Shown here piece after piece: positions 6,415 through 50,622 of a stretch of 57,417 nucleotides of DNA. The stretch lies in IMG/VR virus record IMGVR_UViG_3300029581_000016. One strand, 5' to 3'. The notes beneath the pieces were generated by a model. The model did no database searches. It was not told the DNA's origin and worked only from the letters and a program-made list of their open reading frames with translations. Numbering within the stretch: position 1 is the first letter of the stretch; each line of letters opens with the position of its first letter. The DNA comes from a virus. The position numbers and the translations under genes are program-made.

Positions 6415-6847
6415 ACCAATAACCTTTGCAAGTGCTTGTGATTTTATCAATAGAAATCATAGACACCATAGAGCAACGGTCGGCTGTAAATTTTGTCTTT
6501 CATTATATGATGTTGATAAAATGGTTGGCGTGGCTGTCTGCGGAAGACCTGTATCTCGAATGTTAGATGATGGGTATACTTGCGAAATCAATAGAGTATG
6601 CACAGATGGAACTTACAATGCGTGTTCTATGTTATATGGTGCCTGCTGTCGTGTTGCCAAAGAAATGGGGTATAAAAAAGTTATAACCTATATTCTTGAG
6701 TCAGAAAATGGGGCAAGTTTGAAAGCAAGTAATTTTATTTGTGAAGGACTTGCTGGCGGAACGCATTGGACTGGTAGGAGGGACAGGGGGCAGGACATAC
6801 CAAGAGAAAAGAAAACAAGATGGGTGAGAATTTTAAGGAATTATTGA
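6404..6847 (+). CDS. GNAT-like small protein of the XF1762 type (often linked to phage methyltransferases)
   Basis: MEIRPITF..A..FI..NHRHH....G.KF...L......VGVAV.GRPV matches that family from memory. Start is the ATG at 6404. Confidence 0.45.
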   Translation: MEIRPITFASACDFINRNHRHHRATVGCKFCLSLYDVDKMVGVAVCGRPVSRMLDDGYTCEINRVCTDGTYNACSMLYGACCRVAKEMGYKKVITYILESENGASLKASNFICEGLAGGTHWTGRRDRGQDIPREKKTRWVRILRNY

Positions 6848-11354: not shown

Positions 11355-12716
11355 ATGGAATGTGTTGCGTACATGAGAGTATCAACGGAAAGGCAAGCCG
11401 AAGAAGGCAACGGACTTGAGAGCCAAAAGAGAGACATTCTCGACTACTGCTCCAAGAACGAACTAATCGTGACAGATTGGTATGTTGACGATGGTTACAC
11501 CGGGGCAAATATGAACCGCCCTGAGCTTCAAAGGCTTGTTGCTGACTGTAAGCATAAGAGGATATACTGTGTGGTGGCTTTTAAGCTCGACAGATTATCA
11601 AGGAATATGATTGACGGTCTATATATGATTGAGAAGATATTCCAACCGAACGGCGTACAGTTCAAGTGTGTGCATGATAGCGTAAACTACGACAGCCCAA
11701 TGGAACAGGCATATACTCAGATGATGGCAGTTTTTGCACAGCTTGACAAAAATACAATGATGTTGCGTATGCGTGGCGGTATGTTAGAAAGAGTGAAGCA
11801 AGGTTACTGGATGGGTGGTGGCAACTTGCCTTATTGCTACAGCTATGACAAGGATAGTGGAATCTTAATCCCTATTGCAGAACGCAAAGAACAGGCAAAT
11901 AAGGCACTTGAATTGTATATAAGTGGGTATTCGGATGCGATGATATGCGAAATATGCGGATATAAAGGAGAGCGTGTTGTCAATCGTATACTTACAAGCA
12001 CTGTCAACATCGGCATGATACCATACAAGGGCAAGATATATCAAGGTTTGCATGAGCCTATATTCAACAAGGAGCAGTTTGAACTTGCGCAACAGTTGAG
12101 AAAATCTCGAAGCTGCAATAAAGCAAGTTGCATAACTGAACCGAACTTATTGACAGGCTTATGTTATTGCGGTGTGTGCGGATGCGCCATGAGATACCAG
12201 AAGTGGACGCATGGAAAGCACAAGATATATTGCATGTCAAGAAATAAAGCTATGTCTTATCTGCCGAACCACAAGCCGGACTGCAATAATTCGCTTGAAT
12301 GGGCGGACGATATAGAGGAGCAAGTCGAGAAAGAAATGCTCAAAATATCGCTTGACTTATCATCGTACAAGCCTAAGGAGAAGGAAACGAAGCTTGATAT
12401 TATGCAGTCACAGCTTGACAAGGAACAGGCAAAATTGAAAAGGCTTTACGGCTTGTATGCGGATGGCAACGACACAGTGTTGAGCATGATTAAGGAGCTT
12501 GAAGCAAATATATCTGCGATTAAGGAGAACATTGCAGAAGAACGGAAGAACTTTTCGGCAAGACAGAAGAATACTATTGTATATGACGAAATAAAAAAAC
12601 TTGCCGATGTTTGGGACAGCATCGACAAGAAACAAAAAAATATGATATTAAAAACTATAATTGACAAGATAATCATTGTCAACGGAAATATTGAGATACA
12701 ATTAAAGAATTTTTAG
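11355..12716 (+). CDS. int: large serine recombinase (integrase)
   Basis: YMRVSTERQ catalytic serine motif, DRLSRN, a recombinase domain, the zinc ribbon CYCGVCGC..HKIYC and a C-terminal coiled coil. RBS aagaggagg. Confidence 0.9.
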   Translation: MECVAYMRVSTERQAEEGNGLESQKRDILDYCSKNELIVTDWYVDDGYTGANMNRPELQRLVADCKHKRIYCVVAFKLDRLSRNMIDGLYMIEKIFQPNGVQFKCVHDSVNYDSPMEQAYTQMMAVFAQLDKNTMMLRMRGGMLERVKQGYWMGGGNLPYCYSYDKDSGILIPIAERKEQANKALELYISGYSDAMICEICGYKGERVVNRILTSTVNIGMIPYKGKIYQGLHEPIFNKEQFELAQQLRKSRSCNKASCITEPNLLTGLCYCGVCGCAMRYQKWTHGKHKIYCMSRNKAMSYLPNHKPDCNNSLEWADDIEEQVEKEMLKISLDLSSYKPKEKETKLDIMQSQLDKEQAKLKRLYGLYADGNDTVLSMIKELEANISAIKENIAEERKNFSARQKNTIVYDEIKKLADVWDSIDKKQKNMILKTIIDKIIIVNGNIEIQLKNF

Positions 12717-16010: not shown

Positions 16011-16331
16011 ATGTTTACAATCAACGGCATTAACTGGAGCTTAATATTCGTCAATAATTCAAGTCCTGACTTGTTGCGTTCAGACGGCACTACAAGTCTT
16101 GCTGTGACCGACTGGAACCGCAAGAGTATATTTGTATCACTAGCACCTAAAGGGGCTTATCTGAGGCGTATAATCGCTCATGAGCTATGCCATGCGTTTT
16201 GCTTTAGTTATGACATATCAATGCCGATTGAGCAGGAGGAATACCTTGCCAACTGGATAAGCTTGTACGGCACTGATTTGATTTATTTGCTTGATGGTAT
16301 TATGTCAAGTTTATCACGGAGGGCAGTATGA
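16011..16331 (+). CDS. small HExxH zinc-metallopeptidase-like protein
   Basis: IAHELCHAF motif. The ATG at 16011 follows gaggt. Confidence 0.55.
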   Translation: MFTINGINWSLIFVNNSSPDLLRSDGTTSLAVTDWNRKSIFVSLAPKGAYLRRIIAHELCHAFCFSYDISMPIEQEEYLANWISLYGTDLIYLLDGIMSSLSRRAV

Positions 16332-16468
16332 CAGCGGAACAGTTATTAGAGTACATCCGGAGAACTAACCCGGAAATGACAATGGAGCGCATGATATACG
16401 AGCTTAGCCAAAGCATATATACGGCTAAATCTGTGATTTTTACGGCGCAAAATCAAGTCAAAAAATAA
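16328..16468 (+). CDS. tiny ORF (46 aa)
   Basis: ATGA overlap with the upstream stop. Confidence 0.4.
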   Translation: MTAEQLLEYIRRTNPEMTMERMIYELSQSIYTAKSVIFTAQNQVKK

Positions 16469-16909
16469 TGCAAAAATTTTTAATCGCCCCCACCTATGGA
16501 AATGAAAAATAAAAAATCGAAGTCAAATTCTTGTGAAATTTGGCTTCGATTTGGTGTCATTTTGTCTGATATTCTCGATATTTTTTTTCAAAAATTTTCC
16601 CTAAAATTTTTGGGTCAACATTTTTGGTACGCCCCTATACCCGAAACGCAAAATATAAAAACCGATTTACGATTTTGCCAAAATTTGGCTCTGATTTGGT
16701 GTTGTTTTTGAGCCAAAAACAGCTCTGTATGACAGCGGGACCAGTAGAATGTCACACCCAAAATCGCCCGGCTCTGCCTATGACAACGAAGTTAGGCACA
16801 ACAAACAGACCCCCAAACAGCATCACGTTACAAGCCGCCGCTCATTAAGGGTGCAGTTGTCCGCTTGATGATAAAATAGCACTTCGATTTCAATTTGTCA
16901 AGGAACGAC

Positions 16910-16939
16910 AAAAAGAGAACTTCTGAAAGTTCTCTTTTT
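16910..16939. terminator. bidirectional intrinsic terminator
   Basis: 9-bp stem agagaactt/aagttctct with loop ctga, flanked by AAAA on one side and TTTT on the other. It ends the leftward operon. Confidence 0.75.
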
Positions 16940-16945
16940 AACTGC

Positions 16946-17107
16946 TTATTCCTCCTCAATGGTATCAAGCACCATCTGGATGGCATACTCACGGGAGCAC
17001 ATCTCGGCGCCATCCCATCTATTCGCCTCAATCATCTTGTTGGCTTCGGTCGTTGCATCGGCACGGGTGTAGCCGCAGCTCATGAGCCAGTCAATTATCT
17101 TGTCCAT
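16946..17107 (-). CDS. hypothetical small protein (53 aa)
   Basis: Minus-strand MDKIIDWLMSCGYTRADATTEANKMIEANRWDGAEMC... with RBS gggaggg. Below the track cutoff. Confidence 0.5.
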   Translation of the reverse strand: MDKIIDWLMSCGYTRADATTEANKMIEANRWDGAEMCSREYAIQMVLDTIEEE

Positions 17108-17201
17108 GTCAAACCCTCCCTTGTTAAATTTTCAAGCCCCAAAGCGGAGCTGATACCGCCGCCCGGCAATGAGTCGGGGACATTCTCTGCGGCGGTGATT
17201 T

Positions 17202-17504
17202 TTACAAGCCGTAAAAGCCAAGAAGTTCAGCCTTGCGATTATTATCAAACACGACCTCAGTTTTGCGAACACCAAAATCGCAAAATAGCCAAGTGTCGCC
17301 GGCGACTATCGAAACTGCCAACCCTCCCATCAACGCGTGGTCGACGCTGCCAGCCACTGCATAAGCCAACATCTCAACTGTACCCTTTGGTAGGCAAGTC
17401 AACATAAGAGCCTCGCTTGTAGCCGTTTTTTTGGCTACAAGCTCCATGATTTCATTGCTAGACGCAAATGCGTCATTACAACTATAAATATCTAGTTTTT
17501 TCAT
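17202..17504 (-). CDS. hypothetical protein (100 aa)
   Basis: ORF-track entry. RBS ggaggt 7 nt upstream. Confidence 0.6.
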   Translation of the reverse strand: MKKLDIYSCNDAFASSNEIMELVAKKTATSEALMLTCLPKGTVEMLAYAVAGSVDHALMGGLAVSIVAGDTWLFCDFGVRKTEVVFDNNRKAELLGFYGL

Positions 17505-17550
17505 TTTAATACCTCCATATATTTAATTATCTAGCCGATTTTATCGGCTG

Positions 17551-17591
17551 AAAAGCAACCCGGGGAATCGAACCCCGGCAGTGCGCCGCCT
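17551..17591 (-). repeat. 41-nt tRNA 3'-half-like element, left copy (perfect inverted repeat of 19222-19262)
   Basis: The reverse complement equals aggcggcgcactgc-cgggg-ttcgatt-ccccg-ggttgct-ttt. Confidence 0.9.
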
Positions 17592-17603
17592 CCGGTGATT
17601 GCC

Positions 17604-18116
17604 TTAATCCAAACAGCTTTCCCATGAAATCGCATACCGCGATTTCAGTAGGTCGTATGCTCTATTCGTGACTTTATAAGCGTTCCAGCCGCTCTTATAC
17701 TGCCCGGAGCTTGTCAAGTCACCGGCTTTGTACGTTTTCAAAAACTGGATGCCGCGCCCCTTAAGCTCTAACGGAGTGTCGATAAATATATGACCTCCGT
17801 AATATGCGCGGTGGGCTTCTATCTGACAGCCTTCCGGTTTCTGTTGTCCCATTTCTGGGGTATATGCATAAATCCCGGGCTTTTCAGCCTTCAATGCTTC
17901 CCCTTGTGGTGGGGTGGCAAGTTCAAGACGTTTGCCCCTGCCAATACGGCGCAGGGTGTGAAGCTCGCTTTCTGAAATGTCGCCATTTTCGAAAAGTGTC
18001 TCAGCAATGTCCAGATAGGCATTACAGCTTGCGACATTGTCGCAGATTTTGAACAGTGCAACAAGATTATAATATCCGTTGCTCCTCTTTTCAGGGAACT
18101 GTATTATTTCTCCCAT
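17604..18116 (-). CDS. hypothetical protein (170 aa)
   Basis: ORF 17604-18122. The second ATG (18116) is 6 nt from ggagg. Confidence 0.6.
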   Translation of the reverse strand: MGEIIQFPEKRSNGYYNLVALFKICDNVASCNAYLDIAETLFENGDISESELHTLRRIGRGKRLELATPPQGEALKAEKPGIYAYTPEMGQQKPEGCQIEAHRAYYGGHIFIDTPLELKGRGIQFLKTYKAGDLTSSGQYKSGWNAYKVTNRAYDLLKSRYAISWESCLD

Positions 18117-18209
18117 ATTCATCCTCCTTGTAATGTTAAAATTTTAATACCCCTATAAAGAGGGAAGAACCGCCGCCGGTATCGGTCCGGCTGGCATCCT
18201 CTGCGACGG

Positions 18210-18389
18210 CTATTTTTTACGACTGTAAAAATTCTCGCAAGCCTCGTCGAACTCCTCCGGCGTGGCGATGAAACGAACGCGGTAGCCGTTGCCTCTGAGA
18301 GCATCAGCATAAGCTCTCTTTGTTGTAAAAGTATCATTTTTTACAACTTGTATCTCTCCCTCATATCTCACGCTTGCCATTAACATCAT
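18210..18389 (-). CDS. hypothetical small protein (59 aa)
   Basis: Minus-strand MMLMASVRYEGEIQVVKNDTFTTKRAYADALRGNGYRVRFIATPEEF... with RBS aaggagg. The track instead lists a spurious overlapping frame (18119-18337). Confidence 0.55.
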   Translation of the reverse strand: MMLMASVRYEGEIQVVKNDTFTTKRAYADALRGNGYRVRFIATPEEFDEACENFYSRKK

Positions 18390-18448
18390 ATATAGTCACC
18401 TCCTTGTTTTTGGGTACAACAAACACATGTTCTGTATCTGTTCTATTT

Positions 18449-18495
18449 CCCTTTCGTTGATATTATAATATCACGATTATTAGAGAATGTCAACA
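18449..18495 (-). promoter_or_regulatory. leftward promoter/operator, left copy of a 47-bp inverted repeat
   Basis: The reverse complement reads tgTTGACAttctctaataatcgTGaTATTATaatatcaacgaaaggg, a 46/47 match to 18822-18868. Confidence 0.7.
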
Positions 18496-18525
18496 AGAAA
18501 ATCACTTTTTTTAGAGATTTTTTTA

Positions 18526-18554
18526 TTGACAAAACCGCAGCGCCTTAATATAAT
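18526..18554 (+). promoter_or_regulatory. consensus sigma-A-type promoter of the HTH gene
   Basis: TTGACA (18526-18531), a 17-nt spacer, then TATAAT (18549-18554). Confidence 0.7.
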
Positions 18555-18577
18555 GTAGTCACTGAGGAGGTGATATA

Positions 18578-18820
18578 TTGATATCTTATAAGATAAATGT
18601 TATGGAAGCATTAAAAGAGGCAGGTTTTAATGGTTCAACAGCAAAACAGACCGGGATTTTCAGCCAGAGCACAATGCGGAAGTTTAAAGAGGGCGACACT
18701 GGAATAACCCTGGACAATCTCAACCGCTTGTGCTGCATTCTCGAGATGCAGCCACGCGACATCATTAAGTTTACGGAGACTGACGATGATAGAAATAATA
18801 TTTTAAAAAATATAAAATAA
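18578..18820 (+). CDS. XRE-family HTH repressor-like protein (80 aa)
   Basis: TTG start 7 nt after gaggagg. STMRKFKEGDTGITLDNLNRLCCILEMQPRDII is an HTH_26/XRE pattern. Confidence 0.7.
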   Translation: MISYKINVMEALKEAGFNGSTAKQTGIFSQSTMRKFKEGDTGITLDNLNRLCCILEMQPRDIIKFTETDDDRNNILKNIK

Positions 18821-18821
18821 G

Positions 18822-18868
18822 TGTTGACATTCCCTAATAATCGTGATATTATAATATCAACGAAAGGG
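18822..18868 (+). promoter_or_regulatory. rightward promoter/operator, right copy of the 47-bp inverted repeat
   Basis: TTGACA 18824-18829, 17-nt spacer, TG-extended TATTAT 18847-18852. The palindrome cgtgatattataatatcaacg spans the -10. Confidence 0.7.
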
Positions 18869-18929
18869 AGAAGATAAGAATTTTCGAACGTGTGTTTGCT
18901 ACACGAAAAATTAAAATGGAGGTTCTAAG

Positions 18930-19202
18930 ATGGATTTTAAAATTCAGTGGAGAAGAGAAAACAGAGCTGCCGACCCGGCAGCAGTTATAAAAATTAAAAA
19001 AGTTCTCAGGGAGCTGCCAGAACTCCTTGAGAACGACACAATCACAATTAACCCTAGTGATTGTGATTTCATCGAGCGATGTGCAGATGAGTATTGCTCA
19101 AAACTCCGTACATTGAAGTATGGATATGACCCAGAGCTGGCGATACGCTGTGTTGTCAGCGACTGGGAACGCAGCGAGTTGGAGGCACTCGGTTTGCGGT
19201 AA
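18930..19202 (+). CDS. hypothetical protein (90 aa)
   Basis: RBS atggagg. Clean ORF. Confidence 0.6.
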   Translation: MDFKIQWRRENRAADPAAVIKIKKVLRELPELLENDTITINPSDCDFIERCADEYCSKLRTLKYGYDPELAIRCVVSDWERSELEALGLR

Positions 19203-19221
19203 GCAGTTAGGCAACTGCTGA

Positions 19222-19262
19222 AGGCGGCGCACTGCCGGGGTTCGATTCCCCGGGTTGCTTTT
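19222..19262 (+). repeat. 41-nt tRNA 3'-half-like element, right copy
   Basis: aggcggcgcactgc cgggg ttcgatt ccccg ggttgct ttt. T-arm-like hairpin with a canonical T-loop heptamer. Confidence 0.9.
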
Positions 19263-19303
19263 ACCCGGATAACCGGGAATTTAAAATCAGGAGGAAATAA
19301 ATT

Positions 19304-19615
19304 ATGACCATGACAGAGTTGGCCAAATACATCATTGCAGTGGAGGTACTGGAAAAAGAGCAGGCTCCACTTGCGCAGCAAGTAGGGGACCTGATGCACA
19401 AGAAGTTCACCGTCGGATTGACGAGAGACGAGCAGGAACTTCTCACAATGTCCGACAAGGCAAATCAGCAGTATCAACTGATACTTGCTGACCTGAGACA
19501 TGTGGCAGGGCTGGACAGTATATGTCTGTCGCGCGAAGAGCTTGAAGAAGAGCACCAAGCCGTAGAAGAAGCTCATGCCTCAGTGAGTGAGTGGCTGGCA
19601 GGATATGGCGAATAA
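19304..19615 (+). CDS. hypothetical protein (103 aa)
   Basis: RBS caggagg. Clean ORF ending at a terminator. Confidence 0.6.
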   Translation: MTMTELAKYIIAVEVLEKEQAPLAQQVGDLMHKKFTVGLTRDEQELLTMSDKANQQYQLILADLRHVAGLDSICLSREELEEEHQAVEEAHASVSEWLAGYGE

Positions 19616-19623
19616 TAAAAACA

Positions 19624-19657
19624 AGCCCCGGCGAAATAATCGTTCCGGGGCTATTTT
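19624..19657 (+). terminator. intrinsic terminator
   Basis: 8-bp stem agccccgg/ccggggct followed by atttt. Confidence 0.7.
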
Positions 19658-20045
19658 CATGCCGTAAAGCGCCTATTAAAATAATAAATGGCTCCTGCCA
19701 AGTCACGACCGATTAAAAAGCGTACCAAGCGATAACGGTCGGCACTTCCAGCCCTTATAAAATACATGATTTTTAACTGATTGTCAACGTATCGTATTTT
19801 ATATTGATATATTTTAAGCATTGACAAGCGGTTAATTCGATATTATTATAATAATAATTAAATAATCTCACACATTTATATTTTTAGACCAATAACAATC
19901 GGTTATATGGTCTTTTTGTCGTTCCGTTAATATCTTGACAATGTATCTTATTTAATCCCCAAAAACGATTCGTAAAATGTATATTATATGATAACTATAA
20001 GTGCCACCGGAAGCTTGCAGTTTCCACATCATTACATTAACGTAG

Positions 20046-20109
20046 TAAAATCTGTATACAAAATGTAAACAAAACGTAGCCTAGAGAAGATTAGATAAGA
20101 TTAGACAAG
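20046..20109 (+). repeat. 40-bp block identical to 42950-42989, followed by three TAGAnAAG units at an exact 10-bp period
   Basis: The block is taaaatctgtatacaaaatgtaaacaaaacgtagcctaga. It is followed by tagagaag (20082), tagataag (20092) and tagacaag (20102). Confidence 0.9.
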
Positions 20110-20321
20110 GTAAGATTAATGAGAATGTGTAAATAAATAATCGGTTTTTAAAAAACGTATATAATTATATACTGTATATGCAATTAGTACCAAAGTACTA
20201 TGCTTAAATACCCCAAAGTTATATTTTATATACTTTATGTATATAGTCACGTTTAATTTTATGTGCTATGATAATTCATGTGTGAGAGATAAAGAGATTA
20301 TGATTTGGAGGTGATTATATT

Positions 20322-20951
20322 ATGTGTGACGATAATAACGGTTATGATGTTCAGACAATCAGGACTGTTGATGACATGAGAATTGTAGCTAGTGATATAG
20401 TCACTAATTACTGCAATAGACATAGCATTGATGAAAATGATATATTTCCGTCTATATGGGCAGATATAATTACCGAATTAAACATATTACTATTTACCCC
20501 ATGTAATAAAGTACTTAAAAAAGTAGACGGTATTCATAATGAGTATGACATAGACAAAGTTGAATATGTTTATAATTATATATATAAGCGTCTCTGTAAT
20601 AGTCATTGTCAAGAAGTGACTATTAAGGGATTTTTAGATATGACTGGTATAAATAGACAGACGTTGTACGACTGGTCGAACGGTGTACTTAGCTCTCAGC
20701 GTTCCGATTTAGCTAAAAAAATAGCCGAAGATAACGAAGAAAGCCTATTCAATTTGATGAAGGATAGACGATTAAATCCTATGAAAGTGTTACCAAAGTT
20801 AAACAGATACCACGGTTGGAATATGCCGGGAGCTAGAGCGGAGAGAACGGAGAGAGAAGCCCTTGGAGCTGATGCCCTGATACAGCTTGGACAGCAGCCG
20901 AAGCCGCTTGAGTTGTCCGATAATAGCACCGTGATTGACGGTGATAATTGA
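20322..20951 (+). CDS. terS: terminase small subunit (putative)
   Basis: Position at the head of the packaging module. Has an HTH-like GINRQTLYDWSNG and a C-terminal ...LNRYHGWNMPG typical of TerS proteins as I recall them. Confidence 0.5.
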   Translation: MCDDNNGYDVQTIRTVDDMRIVASDIVTNYCNRHSIDENDIFPSIWADIITELNILLFTPCNKVLKKVDGIHNEYDIDKVEYVYNYIYKRLCNSHCQEVTIKGFLDMTGINRQTLYDWSNGVLSSQRSDLAKKIAEDNEESLFNLMKDRRLNPMKVLPKLNRYHGWNMPGARAERTEREALGADALIQLGQQPKPLELSDNSTVIDGDN

Positions 20952-21410: not shown

Positions 21411-21433
21411 ATGTTTAAAGACATGTAATTTTT

Positions 21434-21505
21434 CGGGCTATCGTCAAGCGGTAAGGCACAGCACTTTGACTGCTGTATTCGTCGGTTCGAATCCGACTAG
21501 CCCAG
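21434..21505 (+). tRNA. tRNA-Gln (anticodon UUG)
   Basis: Hand-folded cloverleaf. The anticodon arm is cagca-ctTTGac-tgctg and the T arm is gtcgg-ttcgaat-ccgac. The 1:72 pair is a C:A mismatch. No CCA is encoded. Confidence 0.8.
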
Positions 21506-21733
21506 TTTGGTCATGCAAATGACCATCGGACTTTTAAGTCATGTTGTTTCATAAACTCCACCTATTAGCGGAATGCTGTTAAGAGCCGTCACAAGGCTCG
21601 ATAGGTTTTCGGGTTTTGTTGCTGTAGTTACCCGGCGCTCCATAACACGCTAAAAGAATAGCAACAGTGCGGACAACATAAGCCGGGAAGCTTGCGACGC
21701 TGCTGATTCTCGCTGTCGCCCAGTCTGCACTTA

Positions 21734-21807
21734 CGGAATATAGTTCAGTTTGGCAGAACGCTCCACTTGGGATGGAGAGGTCGTAGGTTCAAATCCTGCT
21801 ATTCCGA
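21734..21807 (+). tRNA. tRNA-Pro (anticodon UGG)
   Basis: Acceptor cggaata/tattccg, D stem gttc/gaac, anticodon arm ctcca-ctTGGga-tggag, T loop ttcaaat. Confidence 0.85.
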
Positions 21808-21899
21808 CTGCCTCGAATGAGGCACAAAGCAATACCCCTTTTGATTCAATTTTCGTGTAGCCTTGCCACCGCTCGGCAAGTAAAACAAAGAGCGGACAT

Positions 21900-21971
21900 G
21901 GCGCATTAGTCAAGTGGTTAAGACACCGCCTTTTCACGGCGGAGACGTGAGTTCGATTCTCTCATGCGTCA
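21900..21971 (+). tRNA. tRNA-Glu (anticodon UUC)
   Basis: Acceptor ggcgcat/atgcgtc, anticodon arm ccgcc-ttTTCac-ggcgg, 4-nt variable loop as in bacterial tRNA-Glu. One mismatch in the T stem. Confidence 0.75.
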
Positions 21972-21990
21972 TTTAGGCATAATTGTCTAT

Positions 21991-22063
21991 TGGCATGTAG
22001 CTCAGTTGGTAGAGCAATCGGCTGTTAACCGATGTGTCGTGGGTTCAATCCCCACCTTGCCAG
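21991..22063 (+). tRNA. tRNA-Asn (anticodon GUU)
   Basis: D arm gctc-agttggta-gagc, anticodon arm atcgg-ctGTTaa-ccgat, T arm gtggg-ttcaatc-cccac. One acceptor mismatch. Confidence 0.8.
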
Positions 22064-22187
22064 TTAAACTTACGGTAATCACTCTGACAAAGGATTGCCG
22101 TAAGCGGTATAAAGTCCGCATAAAATTGTACAAGGTAGCGACAAAAGCAATTTTAGGTATGGCGGTTACGCTACGACTGCCGTACTT

Positions 22188-22270
22188 GCCAACATGGTGT
22201 AATGGTATCACAGCGGCTTGCTAAGCCGTCCAACAGAAATGTTGTACAGGTTCAAATCCTGTTGTTGGCG
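22188..22270 (+). tRNA. tRNA-Ser (anticodon GCU), long variable arm
   Basis: Acceptor gccaaca/tgttggc, anticodon loop ttGCTaa, variable arm caaca-gaaa-tgttg, T arm acagg-ttcaaat-cctgt. Confidence 0.85.
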
Positions 22271-22344
22271 TTTTCACATACAAGCGAAATGGAAATATAG
22301 TTGTTGGCTATCTGTATTTTCCTAAAACCAACCGGTATGTGAGT

Positions 22345-48171: not shown

Positions 48172-48328
48172 GATAATACCTCCGTATTCTGCGTATTTTG
48201 TCGATTTTTTTGGCACGATTGAGAGTGAGTTACCGTTGATTCTGTGTTATGCTCAACATGTTCCTAACTGGAACAACATCAAGCTTCGGCGAGGAGCGGT
48301 GTGATTGGCGTTGCACCGTTCCTTGTGC

Positions 48329-48357
48329 TTGACAATATCGAACTTATGTTCTATAAT
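48329..48357 (+). promoter_or_regulatory. consensus promoter
   Basis: TTGACA 48329-48334, 17-nt spacer, TATAAT 48352-48357. Confidence 0.65.
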
Positions 48358-48400
48358 AGGTACATCGCTACTGGGAAACGTGTGGATTTTGGGAGGGGTA

Positions 48401-48559
48401 ATGTTGGGTAAGGTGAAGTTAAAAGAACGAGCCGAATTAACCAAAGAAGCTATTGACAACAAAGAACAAATCATTAAAATGATAACTAAAATAGAAGATG
48501 CAGGCACCCTAGAGTACCTGCATACATTCATCAAACTTTTTTTAGAGAAGTGGGGTTAA
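48401..48559 (+). CDS. tiny protein (52 aa), paralogue of 41480-41593
   Basis: RBS gggagggg. C-terminus TLEYLHTFIKLFLEKWG. Confidence 0.5.
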   Translation: MLGKVKLKERAELTKEAIDNKEQIIKMITKIEDAGTLEYLHTFIKLFLEKWG

Positions 48560-48933
48560 TCCTCACTTTTCTTTTTTCGAGATAACATAACATCAATCAT
48601 GCCTAAAATGGTATCTTTATCTCTTTGGTCTAACAAAGAAAATTTCCACATTAAATCAATATCCTTATCGGCTTTGACCGACTTGTCTTTGCGTTCTGGC
48701 GAAACATCAAAACCCATAAGCCATGCTTCTGAAACATCCAAAGCCATTCCTAGAATAACTAGCTTTTCTTGGCTTGGTTCGACTTTGCCTGACACATACT
48801 GGCTAATATCAGATTTATTCATCTTGATATTGTATTCCTTACAGTATGGTGCAGAAAGAGTAAGAATATCGACTTGCTTCAATCTTCTTTCGCTCATTAG
48901 TTTTTTGAGCCTATCTGCGGTTGTCTCTTTCAC
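48556..48933 (-). CDS. CI-like XRE-family repressor (no S24 domain)
   Basis: The GTG at 48933 follows aaaggagga. LKKLMSERRLKQVDIL...SDISQYVSGKVEPSQEKLVILGMALDVSEAWLMG is a classic HTH_3. Divergent from the cro-like gene. Confidence 0.75.
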   Translation of the reverse strand: MKETTADRLKKLMSERRLKQVDILTLSAPYCKEYNIKMNKSDISQYVSGKVEPSQEKLVILGMALDVSEAWLMGFDVSPERKDKSVKADKDIDLMWKFSLLDQRDKDTILGMIDVMLSRKKKSED

Positions 48934-48971
48934 TTTGGTTTTCCTCCTTTCGTATAACAATATAACACTAT

Positions 48972-49078
48972 TTGAACGAAAGTTCAATACATAAAACTTA
49001 AAAAGTAAAAAATGTTGAACTTTCTGTTGACATGTGTGTAAAGTGGTGGTATTATACAATCAGTTCAAAACATTGAAC
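48972..49078. promoter_or_regulatory. CI/Cro switch region: operators and rightward promoter
   Basis: TTGAAC-gaaa-GTTCAA (48972-48987) and GTTCAA-aaca-TTGAAC (49063-49078). A TTGAAC half-site at 49015 lies next to TTGACA (49027-49032), 17-nt spacer, TATTAT (49050-49055). Confidence 0.65.
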
Positions 49079-49107
49079 TTAAAAACGAGAAAGGAGAGGC
49101 AAAGAGA

Positions 49108-49332
49108 ATGGCTTTTAATTACAGCAAGCTAAGAGGACGCATTGTGGAAAAATATGGTAGCCAGTCTGATTTCGCTAAGGCTTTGGGCTGTTCGGAGAGA
49201 ACATTGTCTTTTAAGATGACAGGCAAAAGACCTTGGAAACAGACAGAAATACTGTCTGCAATAAAGCTGTTAGGGTTAGCAGAAGAAGACATACAGGATT
49301 ATTTTTTTACACTTGAAGTTCAAAAGGTTTAA
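49108..49332 (+). CDS. Cro-like XRE-family HTH protein
   Basis: SQSDFAKALGCSERTLSFKMTGKRPW. It is divergent from the repressor. Confidence 0.7.
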   Translation: MAFNYSKLRGRIVEKYGSQSDFAKALGCSERTLSFKMTGKRPWKQTEILSAIKLLGLAEEDIQDYFFTLEVQKV

Positions 49333-49354
49333 CTTTTTGTAGAAAGGAGTAAGA

Positions 49355-49630
49355 ATGGATAAGCAGAGATACAGTATTGTAGACAGTACTGGAAAAGCTG
49401 TGATAGTCAAGAAAGATGATGACCGATACATCGGGATTGACGAACTTGCACAGCACATAGCAATGGATGTCATTGACGATTATCAGGACATTATAAATGG
49501 CGGTAAGAAGATTGAAGAAACTAACATTGAGCTGTCTGTCAAAGTTCTCACCGCCATTACGCCAGTGATTGAAGTTTTTAGAAGCAAGCTACCTACGGAA
49601 AGGGGTGATTGCCGCTTCAATTTTTGCTGA
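49355..49630 (+). CDS. hypothetical protein (91 aa)
   Basis: RBS gaaaggag. Confidence 0.5.
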   Translation: MDKQRYSIVDSTGKAVIVKKDDDRYIGIDELAQHIAMDVIDDYQDIINGGKKIEETNIELSVKVLTAITPVIEVFRSKLPTERGDCRFNFC

Positions 49631-49768
49631 TTGCGGTTTTTCAGCCGGCAGGGAGTTTATGATTTCCGAATAGTATTGGACGTACAGTTTCTTGAAATCA
49701 TCTAAAGAGCCGTTATAACCGCAAATCTTAGCGGTAGCATAAGCAGACACAATTTGTTCAACTGGCAA
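49589..49768 (-). CDS. possible small protein (59 aa), convergent and overlapping
   Basis: A TTG start lies 9 nt after aaggaggtga on the minus strand. It overlaps the 3' end of 49355-49630 by 42 nt. Confidence 0.3.
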   Translation of the reverse strand: MPVEQIVSAYATAKICGYNGSLDDFKKLYVQYYSEIINSLPAEKPQSAKIEAAITPFRR

Positions 49769-49830
49769 AGCAAGTCACCTCCTTATTGAATGATAAGGAG
49801 ATTATAACACAAGAAAGGAGAAAAGAGAAC

Positions 49831-50622
49831 TTGAACGAAGTCGAGAAAGCAGAGACAAGAACACCGATTGAGATAGCCCTTGACATTGACAGCGAGGGTA
49901 TGACAACAGCAAGAAAGCTGTATGAGTTTTTAGGACTTAACCCTAGCAACTATTCCAAATGGTGCAAGGCAAACATTATTGACAACGAGTTTGCCACAGA
50001 AAACGAGGATTATTGGGTTTTCGTACCGCAGGAAGAAAACCCATTGGGTGGCAGACCGACAACAGATTACAGGCTCACAGCTCACTTTGCAAAGAAGTTA
50101 TCCGTTAAGGGCAACGGAGAAAAGGCGGAACAGGCAAGGGAGTACTTCACGGCGGTTGAGGAACGTGTCAAGCAGACAGCTATTGACCGAACCCAGTTAT
50201 CACCACAGTTACAGCTTATGAATATGCTTGTTGAGAGCATGAGCAGGCAGGAGCTTGAAAGCAAGCGACAGGCAGAGCAGATAACTAAGGTTGAAAGCAC
50301 TGTCAATAACATTAAGGAGATTTTCACACAGCCGATTGGTGACTGGAAAGCGGAGATAAACGCAAGAATCCGTGAAATCTCAATTAAGAGCGGCATTGAC
50401 TATCAGACGCTTTACAACGAGATGTACGGACGGCTTGAAACCATAGCTCATTGTAGCCTAAAGAGATTACAGGACAACAAGACAGCGAGAATGGAAAAAG
50501 CCGGAAACACCAAAACAGCAATCAGAGAGGGTACTACCAAGATTGCAATTATATACGAAAAGCCACAGCTTAAGGCGATATTTGAGGATATTGTTAAGCG
50601 GTATGCAATGGCTTATGCGTAG
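49831..50622 (+). CDS. AntA/AntB-type antirepressor
   Basis: TTARKLYEFLGLNPSNYSKWCKANI..NEFATENEDY...GGRPTTDYRLTAHFAKKLSV...AREYF. The start is uncertain (TTG 49786 or 49831). Confidence 0.65.
   Translation: MNEVEKAETRTPIEIALDIDSEGMTTARKLYEFLGLNPSNYSKWCKANIIDNEFATENEDYWVFVPQEENPLGGRPTTDYRLTAHFAKKLSVKGNGEKAEQAREYFTAVEERVKQTAIDRTQLSPQLQLMNMLVESMSRQELESKRQAEQITKVESTVNNIKEIFTQPIGDWKAEINARIREISIKSGIDYQTLYNEMYGRLETIAHCSLKRLQDNKTARMEKAGNTKTAIREGTTKIAIIYEKPQLKAIFEDIVKRYAMAYA

Follow-up and report, generated by a model that had tools for sequence, protein, structure and literature searches.

The small-gene island at positions 16905-19660 of the IMG/VR virus record IMGVR_UViG_3300029581_000016, a stretch of 57,417 nt that we analysed at its full length (hereafter the window), is in our reading a repressor-controlled, plug-and-play set of accessory genes whose transcripts would be punctuated by substrates of RNase P and/or RNase Z, and we put the probability of this reading at roughly 0.55. 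All four internal gene junctions of the island hold a tRNA-like element of about 50 nt, an RNA layer missed in a first description of the sequence (the earlier note). The evidence that carries the argument was observed directly, i.e., the anatomy of the island, the covariation of the element structures, their positional equivalence with hammerhead ribozymes in related phages, the mosaicism of the gene cassettes, and the co-variation of regulators with promoters. The earlier note had taken the block for a candidate regulator-centred anti-defence island with an operator-like palindrome; a variable, regulator-centred island is supported, while the anti-defence role is plausible at most and the proposed operator doubtful. 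Relatives were retrieved from IMG/VR gut-phage contigs using the F07 protein and the tRNA-like sequence (L-numbers denote the related or compared IMG/VR phage contigs, F-numbers the protein families of the island's open reading frames (ORFs)).

Structured elements at the gene junctions

The four elements of the window share one plan, in which an acceptor stem of 7 bp is combined with a mini hairpin whose loop contains GG and with a 5-bp arm that carries a loop of 7 nt, and at each junction the element is followed by a short hairpin and then by the ribosome binding site (RBS) of the next gene (Table 1). Two of them, the canonical type-A elements, are held by a 77-nt inverted repeat (17541-17617 and 19196-19272), the second inverted repeat of the island besides that of the outward promoters, with one copy between the two genes of the right arm, the other at the middle one of the three left-arm junctions, and the elements in sense orientation in both. 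Each type-A fold combines a 7-bp acceptor stem, a 4-bp hairpin whose loop reads RAGG, a T stem of 5 bp capped by a 7-nt T-loop of the GTTCRANNC type, and a UUUU tail, such that the minihelix of 7-bp acceptor and 5-bp T stem is complete at both sites; the left copy begins directly after the F07 stop codon. The perfect tRNA T arm GGGGTTCGATTCCCC is found in the window only at these two junctions (expected, 0.01). The remaining two junctions carry what we term D-type elements (closing stem ACCGYCG/CGGCGGU, linker CAGAGRAUG, and an inner hairpin of 5 bp and 7 nt), which keep the geometry of 7 + 5 bp with a 7-nt loop, not the T-loop sequence.

None of these structures is a complete tRNA: ARAGORN detected none in the block, the Rfam tRNA model (RF00005) had no match at the elements, an anticodon arm is absent, and the covariance model of the elements does not match the true tRNAs of the phage. 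The only Rfam match of the type-A elements is mascRNA (RF01684, mascRNA-menRNA), which scores 24.6 and 25.6 bits at the two window elements and at most 29.1 bits among relatives, all below the gathering score of 42.5 bits. No Hammerhead_II (RF02276, gathering score 37 bits) was found in the window between 15000 and 21500 at E ≤ 5, and permissive Rfam scans of both D-type regions (18120-18225 and 17100-17215) returned noise only. The D-type as a known self-cleaving ribozyme (twister, twister-sister, pistol, hatchet, hepatitis delta virus-like or hairpin) was discarded for want of an Rfam match.

The canonical elements fall into three types whose stems differ yet stay paired, A (GGCAAC./.GUUGCU), B (AGUGACG/CGUCACU), and C (AGCAAG/CUUGCU), and the geometry of 7 + 5 bp is common to all element types. 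Among 50 distinct sequences of these types the acceptor and T stems pair in 99% of cells (99-100% when the preceding set of 18 sequences is included), a value that falls to 39-65% in slid controls; four stem pairs carry compensatory double changes, and neither the covariation score nor the percentage paired was reached by any of the shuffles (0/500). The T-loop consensus GGUUCGAUUCC and the GG-containing mini-hairpin loops or linkers are kept across the same 50 sequences, and the covariance model matches elements only in such islands. The D-type motif was recovered from more than 119 IMG/VR contigs, a lower bound, of which about 70 hold genuine intergenic instances, and their consensus (AACCGCC-GCAGAGRAUGCCM-GCCGG-ACCGAUA-CCGGC-GGCGGUU-UUU) folds to the same mini-cloverleaf (-21.4 kcal/mol, z = -2.75). 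Contigs with the D motif also yielded 39 canonical tRNA-like matches across 56 loci, as well as type II hammerheads in 8 of the 13 loci scanned. Hammerhead, tRNA-like, and D-type elements are found together in many contigs in same-strand tandem arrays, one small gene apart (median spacing 329 nt); L069, for example, has a hammerhead, a type A, a type B, and a D-type element in a row plus a type A on the opposite strand, in a mirror layout like that of the window.

The placement of the elements was assessed on 113 distinct tRNA-like and D-type instances. They are always sense-oriented and tightly set between genes, with a stop codon at most 12 nt upstream in 107/113 and a Shine-Dalgarno sequence and start codon within 90 nt downstream (median 39-51 nt) in 108/113, and the short hairpin follows in all 12 type-B instances and in about half of the type A/C and D instances. 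The closing stem of the D-type extends into the stop codon of the preceding gene (TAG at 18210-18212 in the window, TAA in most other instances, L022-L139). In L043, L074, and L032 a D-type begins only about 94 nt after the start of a canonical tRNA-like element, with no ORF in between. It could be argued that such elements are left uncleaved and serve as leaky terminators or attenuators, or as 3' or 5' stabilisers, with expression decreasing along each arm and the resemblance to tRNA reflecting mere ancestry. The 12-bp GC-rich stack is indeed followed by at least three U in 79 of the 113 instances, a promoter/terminator scan flagged both T arms as terminator-like, and the D-type stems overlap the stop codon, so a terminating ribosome could modulate their folding. 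We nevertheless hold this explanation to be unlikely, as a terminator needs neither a conserved T-loop nor GG-containing loops or linkers, the same junctions hold hammerheads, i.e., dedicated cleavers without a U-tract, and the downstream cassettes are devoid of promoters of their own and would be silenced by efficient termination.

A scan of 185,579 species-representative genomes recovered the type-A pattern once, type C once, and the D-type not at all, versus 10 viral contigs with the type-A pattern and the D-type counts given above. Both bacterial carriers (Firmicutes bacterium CAG:882 and an uncultured Lachnospiraceae bacterium) have copies that look prophage-like. In essence this is a module of phages, with Lachnospiraceae-like gut Clostridia as the probable hosts. 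Searches of the block against GenBank phages with blastn gave nothing relevant. In L039 (13694-13761) and L057 (448-515) the Rfam int-alpA RNA scored above its threshold, beside tRNA genes.

Cassette exchange and hammerheads in related phages

While the flanks of the island (16300-16942 and 19654-20400) are 88-95% identical in relatives, the contents of the arms are mosaic. Clustering of ORFs from nine regions of close relatives revealed a constant plan, i.e., a central regulator, two divergent arms, and a left arm that ends in F02, the only gene present in the left arm of all seven regions covering that end, and a shuffled set of cassettes that includes F07, F09-F14, F18-F20, F27, and F29. 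All six arm ORFs recur in related phages: F09 is conserved in L002, L011, and L013, and F16, a singleton in the nine-region comparison, forms a cluster of seven members among the loci with the D motif, where it invariably follows a D2-type element. Every junction in the arms of relatives also holds a structured element, and at the junction after F10 or F09 this is a type II hammerhead in L001, L003, L009, and L011 (Rfam Hammerhead_II, 60.6-65.3 bits), followed in L009 and L011 by a second, weaker hammerhead-like element (35-36 bits). The class of element beside a given gene differs between phages: before F07 lies D1 in the window, L001, and L002, but a hammerhead in L003; after F10, a hammerhead is present in L001, L003, and L009 where L005 has a type-A tRNA-like element; and before F11, two phages carry type A and L011 the weaker hammerhead-like element. 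If this equivalence is true, finding different classes at the same junctions between the same genes implies that cleavage or insulation has been selected and not ribozyme chemistry.

Cassette breakpoints fall at the elements. The left tRNA-like element of the window has a type-A body joined, right after the UUUU, to the flank that follows type B elsewhere, a junction by which the F11/F13 cassette is lost. L010 offers a deletion scar of its own, a truncated F07 remnant (start codon and first ~25 codons, at about 6475-6740) lying between D1 and a type-A element. These comparisons support the view of the block as a hypervariable island; that it is a discrete GC-rich module is supported as well. 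Breakpoints of this kind would also be expected of DNA recombination sites, similar to integron attC or to attP, that mobilise the cassettes, or of the remnants of a tRNA gene used for integration, and a serine recombinase 5 kb upstream and conserved 15-nt inverted repeats bounding the island would agree with it. Such an origin is nonetheless very improbable, given that on both arms the elements without exception read in the direction of the genes around them, that compensatory changes maintain RNA pairing including G-U, which is meaningless in duplex DNA, that no integron-type integrase is adjacent, and that the sequence is a piece neither of a host tRNA gene nor of any tRNA of the phage. A tRNA-gene remnant or attP was rejected on the lack of an anticodon arm, the absence of the sequence from the phage tRNAs, and its near absence from the species genomes, where the two copies look prophage-like.

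We propose that the block is one copy of a widespread gut-phage module in which promoter-less small-gene cassettes would be read outward from two strong sigma-70-type promoters, both under the control of one small central DNA-binding protein (here an HTH_26 protein), with a structured RNA "punctuation mark" between one cassette and the next and, as a rule, a short hairpin and an RBS after it. RNase P, RNase Z, and the CCA-adding enzyme all recognise a 12-bp acceptor/T-arm stack with its elbow, and the RNase Z of Bacillus subtilis prefers CCA-less precursors with a U after the discriminator, a preference that the UUUU tail of the elements fits. Host RNase P and/or RNase Z could thus recognise the stack and elbow of each element and cut on at least one of its sides, which would free single-gene mRNAs with structured, protected ends and allow each cassette to be expressed independently of its neighbours, while the hairpin after the element would protect the new 5' end and present the RBS. 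The tRNA-like elements would in this manner do the job of the self-cleaving type II hammerheads that occupy the same junctions in relatives, and this modularity would go hand in hand with cassettes being exchanged freely among phages, the breakpoints lying at the elements.

Several observations weigh against this proposal. Cleavage by RNase P or RNase Z is suggested by the shape of the elements only, and the U-tract with its 12-bp GC-rich stack could make them, wholly or partly, intrinsic terminators or attenuators. As the D-type stem overlaps the stop codon, canonical RNase P cleavage would destroy the latter, which argues for cleavage on the 3' side only, or for another mechanism, in this type. 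The minimum-energy structure of D1 in the window is not the consensus fold; the covariation stems from a few deep splits (types A, B, and C), i.e., from few independent events; F07 also occurs beside a divergent HTH_26 gene in one lineage of unrelated phages (L015-L018) that lack such RNA elements; and in the libraries searched no cargo protein had a functional annotation. We note, too, that a terminating ribosome would melt the D-type closing stem and that cleavage on its 5' side would leave a non-stop mRNA.

A more far-reaching version, in which the tRNA-like minihelices, canonical and D-type, form an undescribed class of phage punctuation that recruits host RNase P/Z and is functionally interchangeable with hammerheads in a plug-and-play cassette system, is tentative and, as a whole, rather doubtful; it would make the island a phage counterpart of integron arrays, with RNA insulators, in which gut phages could reshuffle accessory genes that lack promoters, some possibly anti-defence, around a swappable repressor. 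Bolder still would be to see in the widespread D-type motif, with its invariant GCAGAGRAUGCC linker, a new class of self-cleaving ribozyme.

Promoters, regulator, cargo and surroundings of the island

The mirror-image, repressor-centred block of six small genes recognised in the earlier note proved real, with a four-gene arm on the minus strand and a two-gene arm on the plus strand, both ending, as had been described, at intrinsic terminators (Table 1). Its higher GC content, judged by eye at the time, was borne out by computation (0.4525 compared with 0.405 for the window, within the top 1% of stretches of the same size), and part of the excess is contributed by the intergenic RNA elements (0.50-0.55).

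Table 1. Coordinates of the genes, promoters, terminators, and RNA elements of the island
Feature	Position	Strand	Description
Left-arm intrinsic terminator	16910-16939	-	Hairpin and U-tract, -14.4 kcal/mol
Gene F16	16946-17107	-	ORF, 53 aa, 4th of left arm
Short hairpin, D2 to F16 RBS	17135-17151	-	
D-type element D2	17154-17197	-	Closing stem ACCGCCG/CGGCGGU, CAGAGAAUG linker, inner hairpin
Gene F02	17202-17504	-	ORF, 100 aa, 3rd of left arm
Short hairpin, left tRNA-like element to F02 RBS	17533-17549	-	AGCCGAUAAAAUCGGCU
tRNA-like element, left, type A	17551-17603	-	T arm GGGGUUCGAUUCCCC, then UUUU; covariance model 78.7 bits
Gene F07	17604-18116	-	ORF, 170 aa, 2nd of left arm; start at 18116 as in homologues
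Short hairpin, D1 to F07 RBS	18150-18164	-	CCCUCUUUAUAGGGG
D-type element D1	18168-18211	-	First two bases belong to the F09 stop codon
Gene F09	18210-18389	-	ORF, 59 aa, 1st of left arm
Left outward promoter P_L	18493-18465	-	TTGACA-17-TGnTATTAT; palindrome TGATATTATAATATCA at 18458-18473
Promoter of the regulator gene	18526-18554	+	12/12 consensus
Central regulator	18578-18820	+	80 aa, XRE-type helix-turn-helix (HTH_26), Pfam
Right outward promoter P_R	18824-18852	+	TTGACA-17-TATTAT with upstream TG; palindrome at 18844-18859
Gene F05	18930-19202	+	ORF, 90 aa, 1st of right arm
tRNA-like element, right, type A	19210-19262	+	Covariance model 75.4 bits; mascRNA model 25.6 bits, sub-threshold
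Short hairpin, right tRNA-like element to F04 RBS	19264-19277	+	CCCGGAUAACCGGG
Gene F04	19304-19615	+	ORF, 103 aa, 2nd of right arm
Right-arm intrinsic terminator	19624-19657	+	Hairpin and U-tract, -18.2 kcal/mol
Promoter, terminator and 15-nt repeat copy	19821-19925	+	Promoter (11/12 consensus) 19821-19849, terminator ~19887-19916, repeat copy 19911-19925

The central gene, predicted in the earlier note to encode an XRE-type helix-turn-helix (HTH) protein, matches HTH_26 (E = 2.8e-7, 31.1 bits at a cut-off of 22), and a sequence search of the PDB with it found nothing. Its own promoter (TTGACA-17-TATAAT) is a full match to the consensus, and the two outward promoters are, as claimed, inverted copies (18449-18495 and 18822-18868, 46/47 identical) beyond which weaker similarity continues (82% over 77 nt). 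Such a near-perfect duplication is specific to the lineage of the window: L001, L002, L003, and L010 have a different, weaker -35 at the right promoter (TTGCAA in three of the four), with the HTH gene immediately upstream of the right-arm genes, and the window owes its duplication to a recent event in which the left promoter converted the right one. The 14-mer GATATTATAATATC occurs exactly only at 18459 and 18845 across the 57 kb. The palindrome across the -10, operator-like in the view of the earlier note, is doubtful as the specific operator as it does not co-vary with the regulator; the P_L core with TGATATTATAATATCA is invariant in all relatives, even in L005 with its ribbon-helix-helix (RHH)-like regulator, and the right promoter of most relatives carries only half of it, and hence it appears more likely to be a feature of the promoter or start site.

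What does follow the regulator is the promoter spacer: three HTH variants correspond to three -35 to -10 spacers, each common to the left and right promoters of one phage. L005 has, in place of the central HTH, an unrelated RHH-like protein of 68 aa (region coordinates 1770-2153), accompanied by six copies of AATGCACTTAT, of which four lie near the left and regulator promoters and the other two at the right promoter (the repeat is also given as (A/C)ATGCACTTAT), apparently a clean example of regulator/operator module swapping. Because regulator variants co-vary with the spacers and repeats shared by the two promoters, there is good indirect in silico support for the central protein acting on both arms; the action of the HTH would be one of repression. 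In other phages, by an ORF count made by eye, about 19 of 29 arrays have a small divergent HTH_26 or RHH-type gene just upstream, and a Pfam search with 18 candidate regulators (16 from arrays plus those of L005 and L001) identified HTH_26 in seven, Arc in one, and HicB in one. A role for the island HTH as the master repressor of the phage was rejected, in view of the genes for a CI-like HTH_3 protein and AntA at 48.5-50.6 kb.

The six products could not be placed in a family by the earlier note, and Pfam, PHROGs, NCBIfam, and PADLOC likewise returned nothing beyond the HTH. Approximately 45 cargo families, made up of the six of the window, 10 from close relatives (searched against Pfam), and 28 from the wider arrays (Pfam and PHROGs), gave no Pfam match, and the 34 that were also run against PHROGs gave none there. 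Structure comparison, which the earlier note had suggested, was carried out for F07 and F02 with AlphaFold2, and ended in confident models without a significant relative in the PDB. The F02 model (predicted local distance difference test (pLDDT) 86.6, predicted template modelling score 0.80) had its best match at E = 0.1, SepF-like or IF3-C-like and not significant. The family of F07 comprises 259 hypothetical proteins of gut-phage origin; the F07 model (pLDDT 86.8) shows an N-terminal three-helix unit and a beta-rich domain, for which there was no PDB match with E < 0.7, only uncharacterised viral matches, and a PDB sequence search was equally empty. We consider the cargo most likely to comprise early accessory or host-takeover proteins, some possibly anti-defence by analogy.

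That analogy was the core of the earlier interpretation, which, taken at face value, would make the block an anti-defence island with anti-CRISPR (Acr)-like cargo under negative autoregulation of the kind exerted by anti-CRISPR-associated (Aca) proteins, in which strong early promoters would fire on injection, the HTH would then shut both arms, and the RNA structures would be incidental. We consider this reading less likely than the one we favour. The cargo is small, hypervariable, and without a detectable family, the dedicated small HTH or RHH regulator is swapped along with its promoter motifs, the promoters match the host-type consensus, an ardA gene flanked by hammerheads serves as a precedent (PMC3088659), and the separate immunity region at 48.5-50.6 kb shows that the HTH is not the master repressor. 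However, the proposal was made by analogy only, no cargo protein matches a known defence or anti-defence family or fold (the libraries searched did not include a dedicated Acr library), and the conserved, covarying tRNA-like elements at every junction are left unexplained. Nor is the layout canonical for Aca control, as the regulator has its own promoter and does not lie downstream in the cargo operon.

The left arm runs antisense to all neighbouring phage genes, whereas the right arm runs with them. An arm counter to the main direction might be expressed in the lysogen, as part of a prophage-expressed moron, superinfection-exclusion, or toxin-antitoxin-type module with the HTH as its local switch. 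Own promoters and terminators and a probably temperate phage would be in keeping with such a module, as would the F07 homologues of unrelated phages, which are also antisense and just upstream of terminase genes. We regard it as improbable all the same: the right arm runs with the phage genes, the Pfam, NCBIfam, and PADLOC scans of the window proteins detected no toxin or antitoxin domain, and the element patterns are nearly absent from the species genomes (1, 1, and 0) in comparison to viral contigs, such that most carriers are not seen as resident prophages. In L015-L021, which have a P22-type portal or a lambda GpA-type terminase, the antisense F07 homologue lies just upstream of the small terminase gene (in L019 with a DUF4258 gene opposite), and neither tRNA-like nor hammerhead elements were found in these seven.

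The island ends in a perfect 15-nt inverted repeat (16902-16916, GGAACGACAAAAAGA, and 19911-19925; TCTTTTTGTCGTTCC when read outward), not recognised before, which carries the mirror symmetry out to 19925 and is kept at 14-15 of 15 positions in every relative covering that end, each copy just after a terminator. Terminal repeats of an old mobile element, paired protein sites, and a terminator/promoter junction are all candidate explanations. The promoter upstream of the right copy, whose -10 region (TTCGATATTATTATAATA) resembles that of P_L/P_R, has a terminator only ~40 nt past it, and a transcript of about 65 nt (within 19821-19916) may close the mirror-symmetric unit. Beyond the left end lie about 430 nt of non-coding sequence (16470-16900, minus strand) that are 88-95% identical in relatives, i.e., better conserved than the cassettes, and into which an outward promoter reads (16901-16873, TTGACA-17-TATTTT with TG). 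The first 200 nt are GC-rich and possibly structured, a 16-bp hairpin is present at 16514-16552, and Rfam gave no match to this stretch, which could be a non-coding RNA or a packaging or replication site.

The window is a ~57-kb genome of siphovirus type with an SPP1-type portal, a terminase, a C5 methylase, and a large serine recombinase (453 aa, 11355-12716, ~5 kb upstream of the island). The phage is probably temperate, to judge from the recombinase together with a CI-like HTH and AntA, and the window has the appearance of a complete temperate phage genome that is circularly permuted. The stretch 48253-50622, where a minus-strand gene for a 167-aa HTH_3 (CI-like) protein is followed by a plus-strand AntA antirepressor gene (immunity region ~48.5-50.6 kb), is probably the lysis-lysogeny region. 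Five tRNA genes (Gln, Pro, Glu, Asn, and Ser; ARAGORN) are located at 21433-22271, 1.8 kb downstream of the island and before the packaging genes, and their T arms are unlike those of the tRNA-like elements.

Relation to known systems

The purpose of small self-cleaving ribozymes in bacteria and phages, a question open since at least 2011, was still listed as unresolved in a 2019 review (PMC6765202), and the equivalence of tRNA-like elements and hammerheads, if true, makes it directly testable. We found no description of tRNA-like elements at ribozyme-type phage junctions in Rfam 15 or the literature searched, and they may sit unnamed in a catalogue of 10,006 viral candidate structured RNAs (PMC10690425). 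Within that literature, the islands would represent the first bacterial or phage analogue of mitochondrial tRNA punctuation. The arrays of tRNA-like, D-type, and hammerhead elements beside a small HTH or RHH gene also provide a signature for hypervariable dark-matter islands in gut phages, the ~45 small protein families a set to screen for anti-defence or host-takeover activity, and the elements themselves natural insulator parts for synthetic operons.

In mitochondrial polycistronic transcripts, in the MALAT1/MEN-beta mascRNA, and in the tRNA-miRNA units of gammaherpesviruses, a tRNA or tRNA-like fold cut by RNase P/Z separates RNA segments. The elements of the window similarly lie between segments, lack an anticodon arm, and match the mascRNA model weakly; in contrast to these eukaryotic or organellar systems, the scores in the window and its relatives (24.6-29.1 versus 42.5 bits) speak for an analogy of shape and not for membership. 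In RiboJ-type synthetic insulators a cleaving element, a short hairpin, and an RBS precede the gene and render its expression independent of the upstream context, and the window has the same three-part layout before each downstream gene. The difference is that the phage version is natural, that its cleaving part is a presumed RNase P/Z substrate, and that the hairpin is present in only about half of the A/C and D instances, besides all 12 of type B.

Integron arrays consist of promoter-less, exchangeable cassettes, each ending in a structured element and read from a common promoter, and the island is alike in having small exchangeable cassettes without promoters, structured elements, and a common promoter. 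Unlike them, it has no IntI, the nearest recombinase being the large serine recombinase 5 kb away, its folds are in sense at the RNA level, and its arms are two and divergent. Acr/Aca operons combine a strong promoter and variable small cargo with a dedicated small HTH regulator downstream in the same operon; the island is similar in its strong promoters, its variable small cargo, and an HTH/RHH regulator that appears to be exchanged together with putative cognate promoter repeats, but differs in that the regulator has its own 12/12 promoter between divergent arms and in that the cargo matches no known Acr or other anti-defence family in the libraries searched.

The closest parallel is offered by the clustered hammerheads of prophages, which flank individual genes whose identity varies and is mostly unknown (Perreault et al. 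2011, PMC3088659), one set flanking ardA, and which cleave polycistronic transcripts of ~2 kb in vitro, whence the proposal that they cut long phage RNAs into gene-length mRNAs (PMC3088659). As in those clusters, small variable phage genes are each flanked by an element, and the relatives of the window carry type II hammerheads in the same island; the window itself has no hammerhead, and its minihelices belong to no Rfam family and would need host enzymes. tRNA-like punctuation that is interchangeable with hammerheads would thus be a variation on the known ribozyme-punctuated phage operon, and it is this interchangeability that we consider of real interest.

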